Shown here in pieces: positions 1,787-51,903 of a DNA stretch of 64,000 nt. The position numbers and the translations under genes are program-made. The notes under the pieces are model-generated. The model was given only the letters and a program-made list of their open reading frames with translations, made no database searches and was not told the origin of the DNA. Source of the DNA: Cladosporium halotolerans (Eukaryota); the NCBI RefSeq assembly GCF_011745625.1, contig NW_027191461.1, positions 496,001 to 560,000 of the forward strand, written 5' to 3'. Position 1 is the first letter of the stretch. The number at the start of each line of letters is the position of its first letter.

Positions 1787-4072
1787 TCACTCCACAGCCT
1801 TCGGCCTGCCCTTCCTATCCACTCTCTGATCCCTAGGGTCAAACCCACCGTTTCCCCAAGCAGCCCACTCAGGCGTCGCATCGCCAATGTAATCGTGAGG
1901 ACCAAACGGCTTCCCGCTCTCAACGAGCTCGAAGAACTTCGGGTAGTCGATGAGCGTGTGCCAGCGCATCTCGCCGTTCTCGCCCGAAGGCAAGTAGTAC
2001 CTGCTGCGGTCAGCGAGCAGAATGCAGCACGAGTGCGCGTGCTCGGCGCCGATGCCGTAGTCTAGACCGCGGCGCTTAAGCGCCGCCTCGAGCGCGAGCA
2101 CAAAGGCCGAGACTTCCTCGTAGAAGGGCACGTTCTGCATCGTCAGACCCGCGCCGGCGGCCGTGCTGGTGCCGCAGTACGTCACGCCCTTGACTTCGAC
2201 GAAGCTGGGCTGCGCCTGCTCGACGAGCTTGGCGTAGCCCTCGGCTTCCTCGTCGATGTTAAAGCCCTTGACGAGCGTCAGGCGGAAGACAGTGCGATGC
2301 GTGTCGCGCTTCTCGCGCAGAATGTCCATGCAGCGCATGAAGCGCTCCCAGAAGTCTCTGTGGAGGGGTCTGTCGATTTTGCGCAGGGTCTCCTTGTCTG
2401 ATGCATCGATGGAGACGTAGAGCTGTGTTACGGGGCCGAGTGCCGCTAGTTGGTCAGGGTGTTGTGCGTTGCAGACAAGGAAGCTGGAAATGTGCTCCTT
2501 GTGCAGCATGCCCAGAAGCTCGTTGATGTGCGGGTAGAAGATAGGCTCGCCGACCAGGCTGAGAGCGCAATGCCTGATTCGCATACCCTCAGCGAATCGC
2601 TCTGATCGAACACCAGGTACACCTCTCAGCATTTTGATCTTTTTGTAGTGTTCCGCCTTGATTCCTTCAAAGATCATACCAGGTGGATCAACCTGCCATC
2701 TCCATGTAGTGCCGACAGGGTTCGTGCCATGGCGCCAACAGAAGACGCACTTGTTGCTGCAGCTCAATGACGGCGTTGCTTCCATGCAACGATGCGATGC
2801 AATGCCATAAAAACTGAATTTGTAGCATGAACCACGTCCACGCAGAGCAGACTTCGTCCAGCGGCAGATCTTGACGCCAGAGTGCGTTCCCACAATGCTA
2901 TATCCTTGCTTCGTAAGCGAGCCGTATGTAGGCGACGCTTTGGGAACCATTGCTTTGGGTCCAGATGATTGCACTGCGGTTTTTGAGGTTGTCGTGAAGT
3001 CTACAGGGATCGGGGCTTTGCCTCCGATATCCTCAACATCGTCTGTCGACGACTTCTTCGCAGACTTCTTCTGTACTCTCGTGAATGAATCATCTGACTC
3101 TTCCTCATCCTCGGCCTCATCTTCGTCTCCACTCTCGACAGCCTCTCCGCTTCCAGAAACACCTTCGCCGAGACCCTTGCCCTCCGCCAGATCTTCCATG
3201 ATGCTCTTCAAACCGGTCCTCCACTCCGACAGGCTGGCATCGGCGTTGCGCTTCACATCTGCCAAACCGATCGGGAACGCCCTCTTCCTAGCGGTCAACT
3301 TTGACATCCACTTGTCCACTTCGATCGCCTGGCTGCAGAAACCTTGTTGTTCCGTAGGCCAATCTTGCTTATCGCCAAAGCCAAAAACCGAATAACCTGC
3401 CAATTGCTGCAAGGGCGCGGTGTCGATGCGGAAGTCATGGTGCGTTTCTTGCAGGTGCGTAAGGAAGTTCGAGAGCTCCGTATCGATATCGTAACTCGGA
3501 ATGAGCAGGAGGTAGAAGTACGCCGTTCGCTTGCTGTCGTCCTTGGGTTTGGGAATCGAGATGAAGAAGTCGTCGTAGTCAAGCTCTGTCAAGTCGTACG
3601 TCTCCGGCGAAAGGATTTTACTGTCTTCGGATTGGCGCGACAGCTCTTCGGCAAACCTCTCAGCGTAGGCGCGTGTCGATCCACCAAGAGAGTAGTAAAA
3701 GACCAGAGGTTGGATCTGTTCCGGCACAGTCTCGCGAACGGGAGAGGACTTCGCTTTCTTACCGCCCGTCACTCGCTTTGGCCCAGCCTTGGGACGAGTC
3801 GGCTTCTTTGCTGTAACGCTTGGCTCATAATGGTCTGTCTCTGCGAGTTGCGCTTTGGCGTCCGTCGCAGACGGCAGGACAGCTACAGATTTCTCATCGA
3901 CCGGCGACGCAAGTGGCGGCGTCAGAGCAACTTTGGCTTTGCGACTCCGCCAATGCACGACGAGGCGCACAATGGCGAAGAGCACGCCGGCCGAGAGCAG
4001 GACCTCGACGCGGTGAGCATGCCAGAGGAACAGCAGCTCTGCGGGCAGCTGCGCAATGCCGTCGACGGCCAT
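1787..4072 (-). CDS. TYW1: tRNA 4-demethylwyosine synthase (flavodoxin + radical SAM)
   Basis: 761 aa; N-terminal hydrophobic anchor, flavodoxin-like domain, GYSIVGTHSGVKICRWTK, CSNKCVFCWRH (CxxxCxxC), EHAHSCC. Confidence 0.95.
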   Translation of the reverse strand: MAVDGIAQLPAELLFLWHAHRVEVLLSAGVLFAIVRLVVHWRSRKAKVALTPPLASPVDEKSVAVLPSATDAKAQLAETDHYEPSVTAKKPTRPKAGPKRVTGGKKAKSSPVRETVPEQIQPLVFYYSLGGSTRAYAERFAEELSRQSEDSKILSPETYDLTELDYDDFFISIPKPKDDSKRTAYFYLLLIPSYDIDTELSNFLTHLQETHHDFRIDTAPLQQLAGYSVFGFGDKQDWPTEQQGFCSQAIEVDKWMSKLTARKRAFPIGLADVKRNADASLSEWRTGLKSIMEDLAEGKGLGEGVSGSGEAVESGDEDEAEDEEESDDSFTRVQKKSAKKSSTDDVEDIGGKAPIPVDFTTTSKTAVQSSGPKAMVPKASPTYGSLTKQGYSIVGTHSGVKICRWTKSALRGRGSCYKFSFYGIASHRCMEATPSLSCSNKCVFCWRHGTNPVGTTWRWQVDPPGMIFEGIKAEHYKKIKMLRGVPGVRSERFAEGMRIRHCALSLVGEPIFYPHINELLGMLHKEHISSFLVCNAQHPDQLAALGPVTQLYVSIDASDKETLRKIDRPLHRDFWERFMRCMDILREKRDTHRTVFRLTLVKGFNIDEEAEGYAKLVEQAQPSFVEVKGVTYCGTSTAAGAGLTMQNVPFYEEVSAFVLALEAALKRRGLDYGIGAEHAHSCCILLADRSRYYLPSGENGEMRWHTLIDYPKFFELVESGKPFGPHDYIGDATPEWAAWGNGGFDPRDQRVDRKGRPKAVE

Positions 4073-4557: not shown

Positions 4558-5677
4558 ATGACCGGCCTCTCCAAGCACTGCGCCGCCCTCTCCTCTCCGA
4601 ATCCGTACGCCGTCAGCCTCGCCGCCTTCCTCGTCCTGGGCATCCTCGTGTCCTACTTCCCGCAACATGCGAAGATCATCCAAAGGCGGACCAGCGAGGG
4701 TCTGTCGCCTTGGTGGGTGCTGCTCGGCGGCTTGAGCTCGATAGCAGCCATAGGCAACATCTTGACTCTGCCGGCGAGTCGCGCGGATATCGGATGCTGC
4801 AAGGAAATCCGCGGATCCGAATGCGCCGCCGCGCTTTTAGGCGTCGCGCAAATCGGCTGCCAGTGGGCGTGCTTCATGTTCATGTAAGTGATTAGCGCCG
4901 GACGACGGGAAGACCGCAGAACGCGTTGAAGCTGACAGAGCCAGTGTGATGCTCTTCCTCATCTACTTTCCGACAGAGCCGGATCTCGTTTCCTCCGCGG
5001 CAAGCATCACATCCACCGCCCCGCCCAAGCGCCGCGACGCAGTAGTGGTGGGTGTCACTACTCTTCTCGCGCTTCTCGTTGTCGGCATCACGAGCGTCGC
5101 CATGGTCGCGGCCTTCCCGCACCATACCCAAGGCTGGGCGAATCTCCTCGGGTCCATCGCGGGCGCTCTCGCCGCAATCCAATACCTGCCGCAAATCTAC
5201 TACACCTTCAGGATCGGCGACGTCAAAAGCCTGAGCATCATCACGATGCTCATTCAAGTCCCGGGCGCGTTCGTTTTCGCTTTCAGCCTGTGGCTGCGCG
5301 TCGGATGGGCTGGCTGGAGCACGTGGCTCGTGTACGTGGTCACCGGAATACTGCAGGGCGTGTTGCTCGGCTTGGCGATCAGCTACTACCTCGCGCGTCG
5401 CAAGAGCAAGAGCGGCTCCACTGGCGTCCCTAGCATGGAGGATGAGGAAGAGAATCTGGAGGTTGATGATGCTGCTGCGGAGGAGCCGCCACTCCCGACT
5501 GAGCGCACGAGGCTCATTTCAAGAGATAGCTCGGGAAACGCCAGGCCGATGCCCCAGCGCATTCGCGGCAGCCACGGCACTCAGAGGAGCGTGGCGAGCA
5601 ATAGGCAGCTTGGAATGCTGTATGCTGCGACGCCGCCTGAGCATGATTCGGACAGTAGCGAGGGCAGTGGGAAGTAA
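4558..5677 (+). CDS. PQ-loop membrane protein; one intron 4884-4944
   Basis: Two PQ motifs (SYFPQH, QYLPQI), several TM segments; GTAAGT...GCTGAC...CAG intron restores the frame. Confidence 0.9.
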
Positions 5678-6173
5678 ACGCAGTCATGTATCTATACCTT
5701 ACCAATGCAGCAGCAATTTACCGATGACCAATCCCCATGCCAGTTGAAAACGACATGAAACTTGTTTGTTCGCGGCGGTCAGCGGCCATTTTCCTGGTCT
5801 CATTGACACAAAACTGCGGCAGGACGTGTCCTCACTTGACGTCTCCGCAGCTGAAACCTCCCAACCCCAAAGTGTGGTTGTGCGGATGCAGGCCCTCAAC
5901 TTCAACATCGCCTTTTACCAGGGAATCATCGTTCTCCAACCTTCATATCTATGTGTGCGCATCGTCGCGATCGCCTTTCGAGATGGCAAGAGGAGAAATG
6001 GTTGCCGGCTGCTGGGTTGGGAAGTGCATCGGTTGAATGAGCGCTATCGCCGACGGAGGCGTCAAGCAAGTTTCTTGGCTCGGAAGCTGGATGTGCGACA
6101 TGGTGGCAGCAACGCGACAGTATCTGCGCAGGAGGCAGGTGTACGACAACGGTCACGTGCGCGCTCCTTGCCC

Positions 6174-6400
6174 AAAAAAGCAAAGCCCAAAACAATCACA
6201 AAAGCGAACGCCCCACCCCGGACTCGAACGCAGCAAAAGAACCACCCGACCTCGCTCGGCGGGTGTCAAGAAAACCCACGGTGTTAAGGCGGATTTTGCT
6301 TTCGGTGGCTTCGGCCGGAGAGCAGTCGTCGATCGTCGGCAAGGGGTCGATGTGAAAACCGGCCTCGTCTGCGCTCGTTCCACTGCGCCACGCATGACTG
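6174..6400 (-). ncRNA. Candidate RNA polymerase III non-coding RNA, family unassigned
   Basis: A box TGGCGCAGTGG (6390-6380) inside a tRNA-like D arm; B box GTTCGAGTCC (6229-6220); complementary ends CAGUCAUG/UGUGAUUG; T6 run at 6179-6174; no cloverleaf can be built. Confidence 0.5.
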
Positions 6401-6843
6401 AATTGCCTACTCGTGCTCTGGTTATGTCACAGGGAGTTGCACGTGAATATGTAGGTGAAGCGGGTGCGTGGGGGCTGTCGTGGGGGTACTGAGGGGGTGG
6501 GACGTGAGGTTAGAAGAGGTGAGCTATGGGTGTTGGTAGATGTATACATCATATGCTAGCGATATGTTATTGTTATAGGCGTTTCAACGGTGTTGTATGG
6601 GGATGGTGTTGCTGGGGATGAAGTGAGGTGAAGTGAGGTGAAGTGAAGTGGCATATCACGTGATAGGGGTACCCCCATCGAACTTGTCACATGGAGTAGG
6701 CGCGAGGAGTTTCGACAACTCGCATGCCAGCTGTTGCCACATGGCAACGTAAGCAGTGCAAGTAATACGTGACCATAAGCTCTACATCACATAATCGTGG
6801 AGGCAAGCCTGGTGTTCTGGATAGGAGCGGAAGACAGAGTGTG

Positions 6844-6870
6844 AACCCTAACCCTAAGTATCCATATAAA
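6844..6870 (+). promoter_or_regulatory. Telomere-like repeat (telobox) followed by a TATA box
   Basis: AACCCTAACCCTAA at 6844-6857 and TATAAA at 6865-6870. Confidence 0.4.
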
Positions 6871-7782
6871 TTGCTAAGGCCGCTTGTCGGAGACGGAAGT
6901 GGACTCGGTGCTTTTTCGCTTCCAGACACGGTCAAATCAGATATGCGTACGAATTTGACAATGGTTTGATTCGAGGTGGTTTTAGTGAGCAAACGAGGGC
7001 TGCTGAGTGTTGACGCTGGATGCGCTCATGAGAGAGTCGGATCCGCCGAACAGGTTTGGGTGGTATGTGTGTGCCCATCGACTGATCACTCATCAGGCGC
7101 GAGCGATGTTGGGCGAGCAGGTCACTCCATTCAAACTCTACTGTGTCAGATCAAGTGATCTGACATGGTTCTCGTCCAGTGCGACGGCTCGCACGTAAGG
7201 CGGGCGACCGCTCTAGGCCGTCTGCTTGAGGGGTTGCGTCGTTGCAAAGGCGCTTATCGGCCGTTCTTCTTGGGGCACGTTGCGAAGCAATTCCCTATTT
7301 CGACTGGTGATGTCGTCATGGGCTCAGGAACCTTCACACAAGAGCACTACAAGGTTGTGGAAGGAACAGTACACTTGATCGCAATCGGACAGCAGATTTG
7401 TTTGCATCCAATCACTTTTGCAAAGACGGGCTTTTCTTGCGGCCGTAAACAACGCCACACGCGGAGTTGCAAGCCCGCTTTGTCCGCTTGGTCGTGCCCC
7501 CCCAAACCAAGCGACCTACAGGTACATGCAGGTGTATTGGAATTATCGTGCTTCTCCGCCATCGAGCATCGCAAGCCATGTGTTCGATCTTCGTATTTCG
7601 CTGACAATTTGTCCGATTACGATTGTCAGCATTCGGCCGTACCAACACCTCAGCCTCTGCTACGTGGCCAGTATATATACACGCGTCGAACATAGAATCA
7701 TTGAGAATTTCACGTAGGACATACTCTTGTGTCTTTATTTTCTCATAGAACACTGCTACAAAAGCATCTTTGGATTGATATC

Positions 7783-8699
7783 ATGGCATTCAAGCCTTTG
7801 CTTGTACCTGAGGAGAAGCGTCCGACGTCTGCCTTCTGGGGTGAGGCACTATGGCACAATGTAGGTTCTTCGTTTTCCGCATCGATTCAAGGAGATGCTC
7901 AGACTAACGCTCTCAGATGATGCGTGACCAGTTCACCATAGCCACCTGGCTCGCCATGGGAGCTTTGCTCCAATCCCTCACATTCCTCCTCCTGGGCCAC
8001 CTCGCTCTTCTTCCAGCCGCAGCCTACCTCGCCCTACGCCTGGCCAGCACCCTCCTCGCCGCGGCAGGCTGGAAGCATAACTCCCTCATGGACGGCGTAA
8101 TCCTCGGCAAATTCTCCACGGCCTTCCCCAACTCCAAAGGAGTCTACCCCAGCAAGCCCGCCGACTCCGAGATCGTTGTCTTCCTCCTCGGCTTCCGCAA
8201 CAACCACCCGCTGGGCATCCTGGCGCCGGGCGCCAAGGAGATTCAAGACTACTTCATGCAGATGATCCGCGACCTGGACGCGGGCGCGGAAGAGTTCGGC
8301 ATGCTGGGCATGACGTCCTGGCGGGCGGCGTCGACGCGCAAGACCGGGAACGAGTTCATGCAGGTCGGGTACTTCAAAACTGTCGAGGGACTGCATGCTT
8401 TCGCGCACTCAGAGGAGCATATGAAGGCCTGGAGGTGGTGGAACAAGAATGTCAAGCGTTGGTCGCATATGAGCATTTACCATGAGACTTACCAGGTTCC
8501 TAGGGGGAATTGGGAGACAATCTTTGTCAACACGCATCTTACGGGATTGCCGAGTTCGAGGATGAAAACGGAGGATGGACGCTGGGCTAGCCCGGTGGTT
8601 GATGCGAAGAGCGGTCTGTTAAAGACTGCTAGTGGGAGGATGGCGAGGAGTGATGCGAAGGAGCATGATGAAATGGTGAAGGATCCCTACGAAGTGTGA
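7783..8699 (+). CDS. DUF4188-family monooxygenase-like protein (af470/PhnB-like); intron 7861-7916
   Basis: 26-codon first exon, then GTAGGT...ACTAAC...CAG; motifs VVFLLGFRNNHPLG, LHAFAHSEEHMKAWRWW, IYHETYQVPRGNWETIF. Confidence 0.8.
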
Positions 8700-9957: not shown

Positions 9958-12384
9958 TCATTCCCGTATACCTCCATGCGCTTGGTATCCGCCTCCGCCG
10001 TAAGCGCCTCCTTGGCCGCCCTGACCGTACTGATATCCATATCCACCATTGTACCCTTGTTGCTGTCCGTATCCTCCCTGCTGCTGCTGCTGGTAAGGCT
10101 GCACATGAGGCTGCTCATAACCCTGCTGATAAGCGGTGGGATACGCATCATGATCGCCAGGCTGGAATCCTGCAGGCTGCTGAGGTGCCTGGCCGTAGCC
10201 CGGCTGCTGGTATCCACCGTATCCCTGCGCAGGCGAACCTGTGGACTGCGGCGGCGTGCCGTATCCGGGAGCGCCGTGGGGAGCGCCGGGGTTGTTGCCC
10301 TCGAACTCTCGCGAGCCGAAGATGCCGCCTCCGCTGGAACCGTGCCCGCTGCTGCCTCCTGAGAAGGAAGACAGGATGTTCGAGATACCGCCGCCTGAGC
10401 CACCCTGTCGGTTGCCGGAGCCTGCTAAAGATGAGATCATGCCGCCGATGCCTCCACTGGAGCCGCCTCCCTGGTTGCCGGATCCTCCAAGTGAACCGAG
10501 CATGCCTCCAATGCCGCCAGCTGAGCCGTGGCCGCCGTGAGGGCCATGTGCATGGCCGCCGTGGCCCCCAGAGCCAGGGTTAGGGAAGCCAGTCATTTGC
10601 TGCACGGTGTGATTCTTGCCTGCCTTGACGCTCTCCGAGCTCAGGACGTTGTTCAGTCTGTGTTCAGCGTCGCGCTGGTGGTGGACCCATTTCTCCACGG
10701 TCGCAAACATGTTCCTATGCAGCTCGAGGTTGTTGTCGCGTAAGGCCGGGTGGTGGAAGACCCTGCAGACGTCCTCCAAGACCTCGTGCTCAGGCACGTT
10801 CGGGTGGTCCCAGGCGTACACGATGCGCGGAGCGACGTACTGCAAGATCGTTGCGGCCACTTCGCCTGCCGGCTGATTGAGAATGTTGCTGAAGTGATCC
10901 TTGGACAGCATGGAGTGAGTCGGGTCGGAGCAGTGGGGATCATCCCAGACGAGGTATTGCTGCTTGGCACTCGCGTCGATGACAGTGCTGCTACCAGTCT
11001 TCAGAGAGTTGGATGCAGCAGCGATGATAGGCTTGATATAAGGTGCAAGCAGACCCATGATGAAAAGAGTAACCTTCTCGCTGATCGTCTCAATCATTTT
11101 CTCAAGACCAGGGATCTTGCTAACGATGGAGGAGATCGTGCGCACGACCTTATCGCGGAACTGGAGGATCGGGTAGATCTTCGCAATGGCGGCCTGAGGG
11201 TCGATATTGGTGCCAGGGACGTTCGGGCCAGGCGGACCACCCTGAGAGCCAGGGGGAGCAGCGAAGGTAGGGTCCCCACGAGACGAGCTGTACCCGTCAC
11301 CGTAGCCAGCATTAGCGTTACGCGCTGCTTCAGCATCCGATGCAGCTTTGAGACTGTTGGCTTCTTGGATAAGTCCGCCAGTACCAGGAACCTTGCCAAG
11401 GAGACTGATGAAGTCGGCGCTAGATGAAGATGATCCGCCCATGCCGCGACTGCCAGAGCTGTTGCCTCCGCCCTGCGCTTGCGTGAGGGCGGCGTCCATT
11501 TCGTCGACCTCTGTTTGAGTTATGTGATCGTTCGCTTCACCAAGAACTGAGTGAAGGAAGTCGACGCCTCCGAATGTTCCAGTGACGAGAGGATAGGTGT
11601 GCTTGCCGTGCAGGTTGATGCCGGCGTTGACGCCAACATGAGGGAAGACATTGTGGAATCCCATCTCGCGAAGGGCCAACTCGACGTAATTGGTGTGGGC
11701 ACCAAAGTCTTCGACACAGTGGAGGCCCTGACCCAAGCATCTGAGCGCTTCGCACAAGTCTTCTTCCCGTCCCTTGTTAGCACCATGAGTGTACATGCGT
11801 CCGAAATGGATGCTGCGAGCAAAGCTGTACTTAATGTAGCCGGCGGAAGTAGCCCACCCGCCACGCTCGTTGGCGATGTAGTTCTTCATGCCAGTCTGTG
11901 GATCAATAGCGAGCTCCTCGGGGTGGACTGGACCGCGGAGGCGTGCATCGTACTTTCTCGCGTCTTCATTGTCGGCGTAGTCCTTGGGATTGTCGATGTG
12001 CTCTTCTGGTCGGTAAGTGCCCAGTCGCTCCGCAGTGACCTCAAACTCAGCAGTGGCATAGCCGAACGACATGAAAGCAAGGACCCAGACAAGAATGCGG
12101 ATAGTGTCGGCTTGGACGCCCTTGAGCGTGCCAACGTCGACAGCCTGAGAGTAATCGCGGAGCCAGTTGCCAAAGTAGACGCGCTTGATCATCATGCTGG
12201 ACCATTTGTGACCCTTCAAGCAAGCGACCTTCTCTAGCATGTCTTCGATGTCGCCATGGCGCCAGTTGTGGCCTTCAATCTTGGAGATCGAGGCGATGTT
12301 GCCTGCGCCGAAGGCATGACTGGGAGTGGCCAGGCAGAGCAGTGCGATAAGCCCAAGCAGGAGAAACAGCTTTGTGTTTGCCAT
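9958..12384 (-). CDS. Het-C family protein with signal peptide and Gly/Gln/Tyr-rich tail
   Basis: 808 aa; signal peptide then AFGAGNI, NWRHGDIED, RVYFGNWLRDYSQAVD, YRPEEHIDNPKDY, DPTHSMLSKDHF. Confidence 0.93.
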   Translation of the reverse strand: MANTKLFLLLGLIALLCLATPSHAFGAGNIASISKIEGHNWRHGDIEDMLEKVACLKGHKWSSMMIKRVYFGNWLRDYSQAVDVGTLKGVQADTIRILVWVLAFMSFGYATAEFEVTAERLGTYRPEEHIDNPKDYADNEDARKYDARLRGPVHPEELAIDPQTGMKNYIANERGGWATSAGYIKYSFARSIHFGRMYTHGANKGREEDLCEALRCLGQGLHCVEDFGAHTNYVELALREMGFHNVFPHVGVNAGINLHGKHTYPLVTGTFGGVDFLHSVLGEANDHITQTEVDEMDAALTQAQGGGNSSGSRGMGGSSSSSADFISLLGKVPGTGGLIQEANSLKAASDAEAARNANAGYGDGYSSSRGDPTFAAPPGSQGGPPGPNVPGTNIDPQAAIAKIYPILQFRDKVVRTISSIVSKIPGLEKMIETISEKVTLFIMGLLAPYIKPIIAAASNSLKTGSSTVIDASAKQQYLVWDDPHCSDPTHSMLSKDHFSNILNQPAGEVAATILQYVAPRIVYAWDHPNVPEHEVLEDVCRVFHHPALRDNNLELHRNMFATVEKWVHHQRDAEHRLNNVLSSESVKAGKNHTVQQMTGFPNPGSGGHGGHAHGPHGGHGSAGGIGGMLGSLGGSGNQGGGSSGGIGGMISSLAGSGNRQGGSGGGISNILSSFSGGSSGHGSSGGGIFGSREFEGNNPGAPHGAPGYGTPPQSTGSPAQGYGGYQQPGYGQAPQQPAGFQPGDHDAYPTAYQQGYEQPHVQPYQQQQQGGYGQQQGYNGGYGYQYGQGGQGGAYGGGGYQAHGGIRE

Positions 12385-29137: not shown

Positions 29138-29233
29138 TGGCTCTGCCGTGATTCGAACACGGGTTAGTACGGTCGTTGTTTGCTCAGTGATGAGATCCAC
29201 AACGTACTGTGATGCCAGCTACACTACAGAACC
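29138..29233 (-). tRNA. tRNA-His(GTG) with a ~24-nt intron after position 37
   Basis: Acceptor GGTTCTG/CAGAGCC, anticodon stem GTACG/CGTAC with TT-GTG-G loop, T arm CCGTG-TTCGAAT-CACGG, downstream T5. Confidence 0.93.
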
Positions 29234-49470: not shown

Positions 49471-51903
49471 ATGACACCGACGCCAGATGATCCGCTGCAA
49501 TCACCGCAGGACTCGGACTCTGAGACGACTCTCGATGTCGCCAAGGGCAGACACTCGAAGCCGGGCAGGTCTCCCCTCTCGTCCATAACAAGCCTCCCGT
49601 ACCGCCGATCAAATGCCTCGCTTTCTCAGCTCTTCCAATCGACCACCTCTCTCCCTACTGCGGCGGGGCCGTCTAGCGAATCTGGCACGGTAACCCCGAC
49701 AGCAGCACCGCCAAATGGACTGGTTTTCTCACCCGGTAGCACGGGGTCTGCGCGACCCGCGTCGCCTGCTGTACCAGGAGCAAATCTAAGCGGCGAAACC
49801 AAAGACCTCATTCTGCGGGCGTTTGCGCCCCACGTATCGGTTCTAGCCTCGCAAGATACAGAAGAGTTGATCAGGCATAAGGGCATAAGTGGAGGTCTGC
49901 TGGAGCTTTTGCGGCCATTCGGAGAGCATGTTCAGGGCAAGGTCACAATTAGAGACAGCAGCGGCGCAAGCCGGTCATGGGACGACTTCGCGGTACGCTT
50001 CATGGGCGTCAAGGACGGCTTGGAGAGCCCGCGCATGGCGGATAGACGAAGCATGGAGTCGAACACCGACTCGGCGCAATATGGCGCAAAGCGACTCTCG
50101 GCGTTGGAGTTCAAGCCAGCAAGGCTACGATCTGGCGGCGATGTTCCGCAGATCGAGGAGCTCGTCGAGCGACATCTCACATTTGCTGAAGAGCAGTCCG
50201 GCCCGGTGGAGGCCGACTACCTCACATACAACATGGAGAGCTTGGATCGTGACCCTGGCTCTGACTCGCCTTTTTACATGCTCTACCTACGGCGGCTGTT
50301 GTCAGGTATTCCTCTGGTGCCTTCCGAGACTATCAGCCATCCTGTCGCTACTGTGATAGCCATTTCTTCTCGCTCGCCAAATCCAATTGAGGAGCTTCGG
50401 ACACTTTATGCCTCATCGAACACCGGGGAGCATAGGGTACCGCCTTGGGTTTTGAACGAATTTCTACGATATTATGTCCTGATACACGACGAAGACTACG
50501 ACGACATCTCGAAATCTATGGCCCTTTACGATCAGATGAAGCGCCACTTCGGCTTACACTGCCATCTCCTTCGACTCCGGAGCACTCAATGCGTGCCGTC
50601 CGATGACGACAGCGTTAAGCTCCCTCATACCGAATGGATGTCTGCAGCGGAGGAGTTGACAGAGATCGTGCGCCGAGAGACGAGTGAAGATGACGAAGAT
50701 CCGACTCCATGCGTGTTCGAGTCCGACGCCAACGCCATCCGGTCCTTCGTGCGAGAGATGGTCACGCAGTCGCTGATCCCGAGTATGGAGCGCGCGTCGG
50801 CGCAATGGAACGACCAGGTTGCGTCTAGGAGGCGTGGCATAAGCGGTCGATTCATGTCGCTTTCGAAGCGATTCACAACATTCGGCGGACGCTCTTCTTC
50901 TGGTCCATCGCTGGGTGGCGCCGGCAGCAATTATGACAGCGTTCAGGGCTACTACAAGCCTGACGCACCTGAAGCTATTATGCGAAGACTTGCTGATCAT
51001 GCCATGATGCTACGAGACTTTAAGCTTGCTCAAGGCACTTATGAGATACTCTGTCAAGACTTCAAGAACGATAAGGCGTGGAGATATTACGCGGGTGCAA
51101 ACGAGATGGCGGCGGTCAGTACGCTGTTGGCCGCAGGGGGTCTTAGCAGCAAAGCTCGAACAGAGACGGTCGACCAATACCTTGAAGCGGCTTACTATTC
51201 CTATGTTACCCGTGCGAATGCCCCATACAATGCGCTTCGAACGCTGGTACTTGGATCCGAGCTTTTAAAATTACGAGGAGGCAGCGCACTGGACGACTCG
51301 GCTCGCTGGCTGAGCAAAATCATTGACGATCGCTTGGTGGGCCCTACCGGTTACGCCTTGCTTCTCGAGCGATCTGCTATCTGCTACAGCGAGCGTCAGG
51401 GCGTAGCAGGTCTAAGCGCCGGTGAGAGGAAACGGAAGGCAGCTTTCTGGCACACATTGGCCGCCGAGGCATGGTCAAAGCAGGATAAGAGCAGTCAAGC
51501 CGAGAACTGTCTGCGTGCTGCGGCTCGTCTGTACAAGTCGGGAGGCGCGAATCTCGAGTTTGGCAACATGCAGAACTTCCTTGCTTCTCTACAGGCGACG
51601 GTCAAGGCGAACCGAGCCGGACCGCAACACCTCGACATCGGCGACGACGAGCAGACGCTTGTAGAGCCCATGCAGGAGCAAGATCACCAATTTGGACCTC
51701 ATTCGCCGATAGGCCACCGCAAAAGTATCAGCACCAATGCCGCCTACTTCCCCCAGGTAAACACTTCCTTTGACCCACTCGGAGCGGTGCCCAATGCATA
51801 CGGTGGACCGCCAGCAGACGCATTGAATCCTCAAGCTGCTGCCGGTGGACTTCCTAGTCCAGGGCTGGAGCGTAGACAGACGAGAGACGATGGTTTTGAA
51901 TGA
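49471..51903 (+). CDS. TRS85: TRAPP III-specific subunit Trs85
   Basis: AFAPHVSVLAS, LLRPFG, ETISHPVA, LRYYVLIHD, MKRHFGLHCHLLRL, EAIMRRLADHAMMLRD. Confidence 0.88.
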   Translation: MTPTPDDPLQSPQDSDSETTLDVAKGRHSKPGRSPLSSITSLPYRRSNASLSQLFQSTTSLPTAAGPSSESGTVTPTAAPPNGLVFSPGSTGSARPASPAVPGANLSGETKDLILRAFAPHVSVLASQDTEELIRHKGISGGLLELLRPFGEHVQGKVTIRDSSGASRSWDDFAVRFMGVKDGLESPRMADRRSMESNTDSAQYGAKRLSALEFKPARLRSGGDVPQIEELVERHLTFAEEQSGPVEADYLTYNMESLDRDPGSDSPFYMLYLRRLLSGIPLVPSETISHPVATVIAISSRSPNPIEELRTLYASSNTGEHRVPPWVLNEFLRYYVLIHDEDYDDISKSMALYDQMKRHFGLHCHLLRLRSTQCVPSDDDSVKLPHTEWMSAAEELTEIVRRETSEDDEDPTPCVFESDANAIRSFVREMVTQSLIPSMERASAQWNDQVASRRRGISGRFMSLSKRFTTFGGRSSSGPSLGGAGSNYDSVQGYYKPDAPEAIMRRLADHAMMLRDFKLAQGTYEILCQDFKNDKAWRYYAGANEMAAVSTLLAAGGLSSKARTETVDQYLEAAYYSYVTRANAPYNALRTLVLGSELLKLRGGSALDDSARWLSKIIDDRLVGPTGYALLLERSAICYSERQGVAGLSAGERKRKAAFWHTLAAEAWSKQDKSSQAENCLRAAARLYKSGGANLEFGNMQNFLASLQATVKANRAGPQHLDIGDDEQTLVEPMQEQDHQFGPHSPIGHRKSISTNAAYFPQVNTSFDPLGAVPNAYGGPPADALNPQAAAGGLPSPGLERRQTRDDGFE

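Follow-up and report, generated by a model that had tools for sequence, protein, structure and literature searches.

The closest described systems to the element reported here are the tRNA-related SINEs of filamentous fungi, among them AfuSINE2 of Aspergillus fumigatus, Mg-SINE, Foxy and nrs1 (PMC5063351). As described there, these SINEs are 140–493 bp long, occur in 1 to ~160 copies and carry degenerate A and B boxes; their heads do not fold as cloverleaves, and an oligo-T tract served as a search criterion (PMC5063351). Set beside them, the element that we identified on the minus strand at positions 6174–6440 of the window, the whole 64-kb stretch of ascomycete nuclear DNA that was analysed, is likewise short and low-copy, with degenerate boxes and no cloverleaf head, a tRNA-unrelated extension upstream of its oligo-T and a location in gene-rich intergenic DNA (PMC5063351). 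The likeness is one of descriptions, and the element stands apart from these SINEs in having no target-site duplication that we could find, boxes 161 nt apart, a B box at the extreme 3′ end and one paralog with a common upstream flank (PMC5063351).

Nuclear tRNA genes (RF00005), such as the tRNA-His(GTG) gene of the window, resemble the element in the letters of the A box and D arm and of the B box, in an oligo-T soon after the tRNA-like 3′ end and in a TATA-like word near −25 to −30. Unlike them, the element has a weak acceptor, anticodon and T stems that are each 3/5 paired, and a 95-nt insert at a non-canonical place. Its D arm may resemble that of some cytoplasmic tRNAs. Vault RNAs and the tRNA-derived BC1- or 4.5S-like RNAs are short products of type-2 Pol III genes in which the ends are conserved and the centre varies. 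They share with the element a 5′ A box, a 3′ B box followed by oligo-T and a variable middle, whereas the element matches none of them in Rfam and forms no end-to-end helix more stable than chance; vault components are not known in ascomycetes. Few fungal Pol III transcripts have been catalogued beyond tRNA, 5S, U6, 7SL and RNase P/MRP. Literature searches by string and by topic returned no published description of the element; the family may already have an entry in Repbase or Dfam.

The element is located in the 2.2-kb gap separating a PQ-loop gene from a Monooxy_af470-like gene. The genes of the locus and the parts of the element, the latter in minus-strand order with the smaller motifs beside the modules that hold them, are:

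1790–4072, minus strand: TYW1-type gene with Flavodoxin, Radical_SAM and Wyosine_form domains
4558 to ~5674–5677, plus strand: two-exon PQ-loop gene
7917–8696, plus strand: Monooxy_af470-like gene
6394..6440, minus strand: upstream module adjoining the 5′ side of the tRNA-like head; relatives conserve it at one paralogous locus or more
6390–6380, minus strand: A box UGGCGCAGUGG, inside the D-arm mimic
6388–6385 / 6374–6371, minus strand: D-arm mimic GCGC/GCGC with a 10-nt loop; the A box and D-arm module spans 6371–6390
6309–6379, minus strand: variable middle, replaced or skipped in other copies
6358–6355, 6274–6271 and 6238–6235 (span 6235..6358), minus strand: three internal T4 runs
6217–6308, minus strand: repeated 3′ core of the family, ~92 nt, with two hairpins and the B box; peak at 6232–6276
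6297–6289/6279–6271 and 6265–6258/6251–6243, minus strand: core hairpins, the second bearing a weaker A-box-like GCCGAGCGAGG
6229–6220, minus strand: B box GUUCGAGUCC, placed as in a T arm, close to where the repeated unit ends on its 3′ side
6174–6203, minus strand: candidate Pol III terminator region, with T4 at 6203–6200, T4 at 6192–6189 and T6 at 6179–6174

Both boxes lie on one strand in A-then-B order, the arrangement of a Pol III type-2 unit, with 161 nt between them, start to start, which is longer than usual for such a unit. A sequence-only reading of this DNA had proposed most of these signals, and the letters agree with it on the A box with its D-arm mimic on the minus strand (6390–6371), on a B box that it placed ~150 nt downstream, and on the internal stems it listed, which are present in the sequence. 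The T4-then-T6 tracts that it named are found at 6203–6200 and 6179–6174, with the second T4 in between. The ends can pair as proposed, CAGUCAUG (6400–6393) with UGUGAUUG (6200–6193) over 8 pairs, though 3/8 of these are G–U. It had missed the three internal T4 runs, which could impose an early Pol III stop at points within 6235..6358 of the minus strand. A weak TATA-like word, ACATAAC, lies ~25–30 nt before the presumed start, within 6394..6440 on the minus strand, and the weaker A-box-like word of the second hairpin lies ~30 nt before the B box.

Across the window, 1.04 matches to the A-box pattern are expected and 1 occurs, while the B-box pattern has 3 against 0.64 expected, so that singly each box is at or near chance level. 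Given these single-box rates, only ~0.0013 ordered A-then-B pairs per window are expected with both boxes on one strand and no more than 250 nt apart, and chance therefore does not explain the pair. The other two B-box matches, at 50055 and 50715, are without an A box or T tract nearby and were set aside.

The sequence-only reading had also described a structured core between the tRNA-like ends, which the folding energies do not support. The minimum free energy of 6174–6400 is −77.7 kcal/mol, compared with −81.9 ± 4.8 kcal/mol for shuffled sequences (z +0.87), with 157 of the 200 shuffles folding as well or better; the repeated core 6217–6308 gives z −0.22 and the 141-nt 3′ part z +0.15. One paralog contig of run X3, from the closest relative, is without both 6291 and 6277, paired positions of the hairpin 6297–6289/6279–6271. 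This joint loss is unrepeated in other copies and was not counted as covariation. A plus-strand reading of the core, with a primer-binding-site-like or polypurine-like flank, was rejected: there is no TGG start, the flanks are not adjacent and the fold gives z +1.05. On the protein side, Pfam matched no family on the ORFs crossing the element on either strand, and a protein search with the element's 80-aa minus-strand ORF, aimed at spurious ORFs over other copies, returned none.

The tRNA-His(GTG) gene of the window, with a 24-nt intron at 29138–29233 on the minus strand, served as a control for the comparison with known RNAs. It is a clean ARAGORN call when introns are allowed and is preceded by TATAAA at −30 to −25 (29263–29258); its T5 (29119–29115) starts 19 nt past the 3′ end. 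Given 401 nt, Rfam finds this gene with 47 bits and an E value of 4e-9, against no Rfam tRNA match at E<=10 for the element on 361 nt. The same gene is missed by ARAGORN at default settings and by both whole-window Rfam runs. A lack of hits at those settings, where a real tRNA is lost, is therefore weak evidence in fungal DNA, and only the small-region Rfam runs are informative; the caution extends to the whole-window run at gathering thresholds, which returned nothing and misses tRNA-His too. In the small-region runs, the 361 nt around the element matched nothing at E<=10, and Rfam 15 runs on 1201, 71, 146 and 361 nt around it gave either no rows or chance-level rows with E values of 3.7–9.2. 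Within these Rfam 15 runs there was no covariance-model match to U6, 7SL, RNase P/MRP, 5S, vault, Y or snoRNAs. The element is therefore unassigned, as the earlier claim of no known family had it.

ARAGORN reports 0 genes in the window at default settings and nothing at the element when introns of 0–200 nt are allowed at the default threshold. With introns allowed and the threshold lowered to 80–90%, it threads one cloverleaf over 6398–6209, which is 1 of 14 hits in the 64 kb at 90% and 1 of 204 at 80%, and which is lost at 92%. The acceptor of this cloverleaf (GUCAUGC/GUGGGGC) has 3 Watson–Crick pairs, 3 G–U pairs and 1 mismatch. Its D arm is intact, whereas the anticodon stem and the T stem are each 3/5 paired, and a 95-nt insert at a non-canonical place is accompanied by a long extra arm. 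Since the cloverleaf draws on the two boxes themselves, it does not count as separate evidence, and the relaxed-threshold score is at the level of a decayed relic. A tRNA with a long intron was rejected, given the loss at the 92% threshold and the empty Rfam result at E<=10 on 361 nt. The statement that the element is not a tRNA holds, since it falls below the ARAGORN threshold and has no Rfam tRNA match at E<=10; the accompanying statement that acceptor, anticodon and T stems cannot be formed was too strong, as relaxed ARAGORN draws weak versions of them on the minus strand.

Words sampled from 5700–6900 are present in 20 listed public runs from 15 studies, none recorded as RNA, and many of the 20 runs carry only about one-fifth of the sampled words. 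A short CACTT/CACCT-type simple repeat at 6602–6650 draws unrelated contigs in 4/4 runs, visible as depth bumps and loose ends at 6619–6657, and probably inflates the word shares of runs matching 5700–6900. Contigs of four public runs (X3, X10, X13 and X16) were aligned to the stretch at 80% likeness. Runs X3, X13 and X16 each contain the orthologous locus together with several other contigs that match only 6217–6308, so that in 3/4 runs of relatives this core is found on several contigs with unrelated flanks. In relatives, the 3′ two-fifths of the stretch proposed as an RNA are repeated DNA, which had gone unnoticed in the sequence-only reading. In the bin 6233–6273, summed contig depth compared with the single-copy flank is 121 vs 11 in X3, 195 vs 12.6 in X13 and 990 vs 270 in X16; it reaches up to ~11–15 times the single-copy flank at the core, and summed depth is not a copy number. 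Run X10, whose contigs are identical to the window at a depth of 4–7, has no depth excess at the core, and no second copy was found within the 64-kb window. Copy number had been named as the check for a SINE, and several loci do occur in relatives, but their count is low: X13 and X16 each have 3 distinct downstream flanks besides that of the ortholog, that is, at least 4 loci per genome. Paralog flanks are common to several runs (loose ends at 6217 and 6429; X3, X13, X16 and X10), and the paralog loci therefore predate the species splits.

The copies vary in a modular way. In one 7333-nt contig of X16, the 71 letters of 6309–6379 are replaced by 68 others, joining 6308 to 6380; in one contig each of X3 and X16, 6276 is joined to 6376, so that 99 nt (6277–6375) are skipped and part of the core is gone too. 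The segment 6376–6440 recurs less often than the core, at ~2 times single-copy depth. Upstream paralog matches cover 6401–6440 in X10 (4 other letters) and 6380–6429 in X16 (7 other letters), and at the loose ends 6394, 6401, 6429 and 6440 different DNA lies beyond. The A-box letters GCGCAGTGG, shown as the complement, are present in the paralog loose ends at 6394 (X3) and 6401 (X10). Beyond 6308, most other copies differ from the window (8 X13 contigs, agreement 0.8), yet on the minus strand their letters start with CAGTCAT, the same as 6400–6394. Many copies are therefore possibly shorter and without a canonical A box, and such shorter forms may be the commonest.

The search for further relatives by pattern was confined to metagenomes and genome collections. 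A metagenome scan for an A box, a gap of 135–160 and a B box returned 99 stretches, none like 5700–6900 at E<=1e-3, and all are therefore noise. A core 19-mer occurs in 12 bacterial or archaeal genomes and in 0 viral contigs; of the flanks, 11 were inspected, and they have nothing in common beyond the 19-mer itself, which was dropped as a lead. By eye, these 11 flanks sort into a few groups that resemble conserved coding DNA and have no relation to the fungal element.

At the 3′ side, similarity between copies ends 0–10 nt past the B box, with loose ends at 6210, 6211, 6214, 6217 and 6220, and each copy continues into its own flank. Within 30 nt downstream, a run of T4 or longer occurs in 4 of the 5 distinct paralog flanks listed, compared with 5.3% of all 30-nt spans of the window (binomial 4e-5), and a run of T5 or longer in 3 of these 5, against a background of 1.2% (2e-5). 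Counted by eye, the T run starts 15–18 nt past the B box in 4 of 6 copies, which is near tRNA-gene geometry. These T-rich 3′ flanks are the best evidence that the family may carry, or may once have carried, minus-strand Pol III units. The spacers from B box to T run differ among copies, which is easier to reconcile with separate genes than with repeated copying of a single transcript. At the other end, similarity to one paralog runs 40–60 nt upstream of the presumed start and includes the weak TATA-like ACATAAC; this counts against retroposition, because retroposed Pol III transcripts should be without it. The 3′ end consists of the B box and then the T-rich flank, with no A-rich, simple-repeat or LINE-like tail. 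No target-site duplication was found in the flanks, in which there is no 10–14 nt match with at most 1 mismatch; the only word of 6 nt or longer on both sides is the palindrome CACGTG, and chance alone would give ~2 common 6-mers. Neither terminal inverted repeats nor direct repeats at the flanks were seen.

We favour, with moderate confidence, the reading that the element is a low-copy, tRNA-derived dispersed repeat of Pol III type, belonging to a SINE-like or pseudo-tRNA family and present here as a relic. On this reading, 6174–6440 of the minus strand would be one copy of a dispersed low-copy family with Pol III type-2 signals that is present in relatives. The unit would be laid out as a tRNA-like 5′ head, with the A box in the D-arm mimic, then a poorly conserved middle and, on the 3′ side, a ~92-nt conserved core with a T-loop-like B box at its end, followed by oligo-T at tRNA-gene distance. 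We infer that the family arose from tRNA gene material; it may have been transcribed by Pol III at some time and may have spread by retroposition of such transcripts or by DNA duplication. The window copy would have been in place before the sampled species split and now appears to drift, presumably inert, like the surrounding intergenic DNA. Because 6217–6308 and, less often, 6376–6440 lie on several contigs with unrelated flanks, a repeat or relic is preferred over a unique RNA gene. The sequence-only reading had left the choice between an unrecognised Pol III RNA and a tRNA-derived SINE or relic; the multi-contig occurrence of 6217–6308 favours the latter, and the element is most likely not a unique new structured RNA. 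The term SINE is only partly supported, because there is no target-site duplication and no tail and the boxes are not 30–60 nt apart; the 161-nt box gap counts against the main reading as well.

A small family of working Pol III genes, each encoding a tRNA-framed RNA of ~200 nt, is an unlikely reading, though several features of the copies speak for it. In such genes, TFIIIC and TFIIIB would be recruited through a conserved upstream TATA-like region together with the A box and the distant B box, T5–T6 would stop the transcript, and paralogs would differ in specificity through their variable middles. Despite the differing spacers, every copy is followed at a tRNA-like distance by a T run of its own; the shared 40–60 nt upstream in one paralog, with ACATAAC, has a counterpart in the TATAAA at −30 to −25 of the real tRNA-His; and the paralog loci are old and retained, with the same flanks in several runs. 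In the ortholog of X3, of the 13 listed among 17 differences, 1 falls at 6121, 12 fall in 6433–6616 and 0 in 6122–6432. This difference-free stretch, however, also continues downstream toward 5700 and is therefore not element-specific. The orthologous copies of X13 and X16 show no more conservation than the intergenic DNA on either side: identity in X13 is 93.6% over 6218–6358, compared with 92.7% over 5700–5972 and 93.7% over 6388–6640, and in X16 ~95.5% over 6067–6290, compared with 93.8% over 5700–5972 and 96% over 6574–6900. Working genes would also have to accommodate a folding energy that equals that of shuffles, three internal T4 runs, stems weak enough to be drawn only at relaxed ARAGORN thresholds, and commonest copies that apparently are without the canonical A box. 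A more specific form, somewhat more doubtful again, would be an undescribed ascomycete gene family whose Pol III RNAs use a tRNA frame split in two, with loci kept across several species. Such genes would combine a D-arm and A-box 5′ module that has its own conserved upstream promoter, a ~70-nt paralog-specific insert acting as a specificity or guide segment, and a 92-nt conserved 3′ module that closes with a T-loop-like B box and has a terminator to itself.

The repeat might instead have nothing to do with Pol III, being a MITE or another piece of a DNA transposon or LTR element in which the A- and B-box-like words are coincidental and the A-rich plus-strand flank reflects a target preference; we regard both the reading and this account of the flank as improbable. 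The repeated part (6217–6308, peak 6232–6276) is indeed far shorter than the proposed RNA, internal deletions and replacements set the copies apart, the similarity extends upstream beyond the Pol III start, and there is no energy signal. Hard to obtain by chance, however, are a D-arm mimic around a canonical A box and a B box that ends the repeated unit with same-strand T runs in 4 of 5 other copies; one ARAGORN cloverleaf threads both boxes, no terminal inverted or flanking direct repeats were seen, and no repeat of the element was found within the window. Least probable of all, in our estimate, is a broken relic of one or two ordinary tRNA genes with insertions, which would lie inside a long 3′ UTR of the PQ-loop gene or in promoter DNA, with the depth excess due to an unrelated short repeat that had landed in it. 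The location between the PQ-loop gene and the Monooxy_af470-like gene, which starts at 7917, would suit it. So would the depth profile of X16, in which a 1904-nt contig at depth 270 extends from beyond 5700 to 6290 and 6462–6900 has a depth of only ~4, like RNA coming from the PQ-loop side. The drop hints at a transcript boundary between 6290 and 6462, which could belong to either strand and to a Pol III unit as much as to the PQ-loop 3′ UTR, and that X16 is an RNA run is a guess. Against such a relic, head and core recur together at other loci, and their union is therefore not a one-off juxtaposition.

If the low-copy tRNA-derived repeat is the correct reading, the locus is a matter of routine repeat annotation, one more such fungal element with little biological surprise, which can serve in masking and can mark the common ancestry of species. 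If instead the copies are transcribed and under selection, the locus would matter more, since a family of several copies that vary in their central segment would open a new class for study.

Some further features of the locus are recorded here in their own right. E-box palindromes CACGTG occur at 6154–6159, 6440–6445 and 6657–6662, three in ~510 nt compared with 10 in the whole window, and CACGTG is also found in the loose ends of relatives around 6650–6690; the cluster may be a regulatory cluster of a neighbouring gene. Just downstream of the element, 5973–6073 is an indel or replacement hotspot, in which ~95–100 nt are swapped for 102–109 unrelated letters in X13 and X16 in otherwise collinear contigs, so that a 50-codon minus-strand ORF beginning at 6100 is largely lost. 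In X3, the closest relative, a G-rich insertion of 24 nt sits behind 6490. Farther along the window, at 9958–12384 on the minus strand, lies an ORF of 808 aa that starts like a signal peptide, has a long C-terminal region rich in Gly, Gln and Tyr, and may encode a Het-C-type protein.
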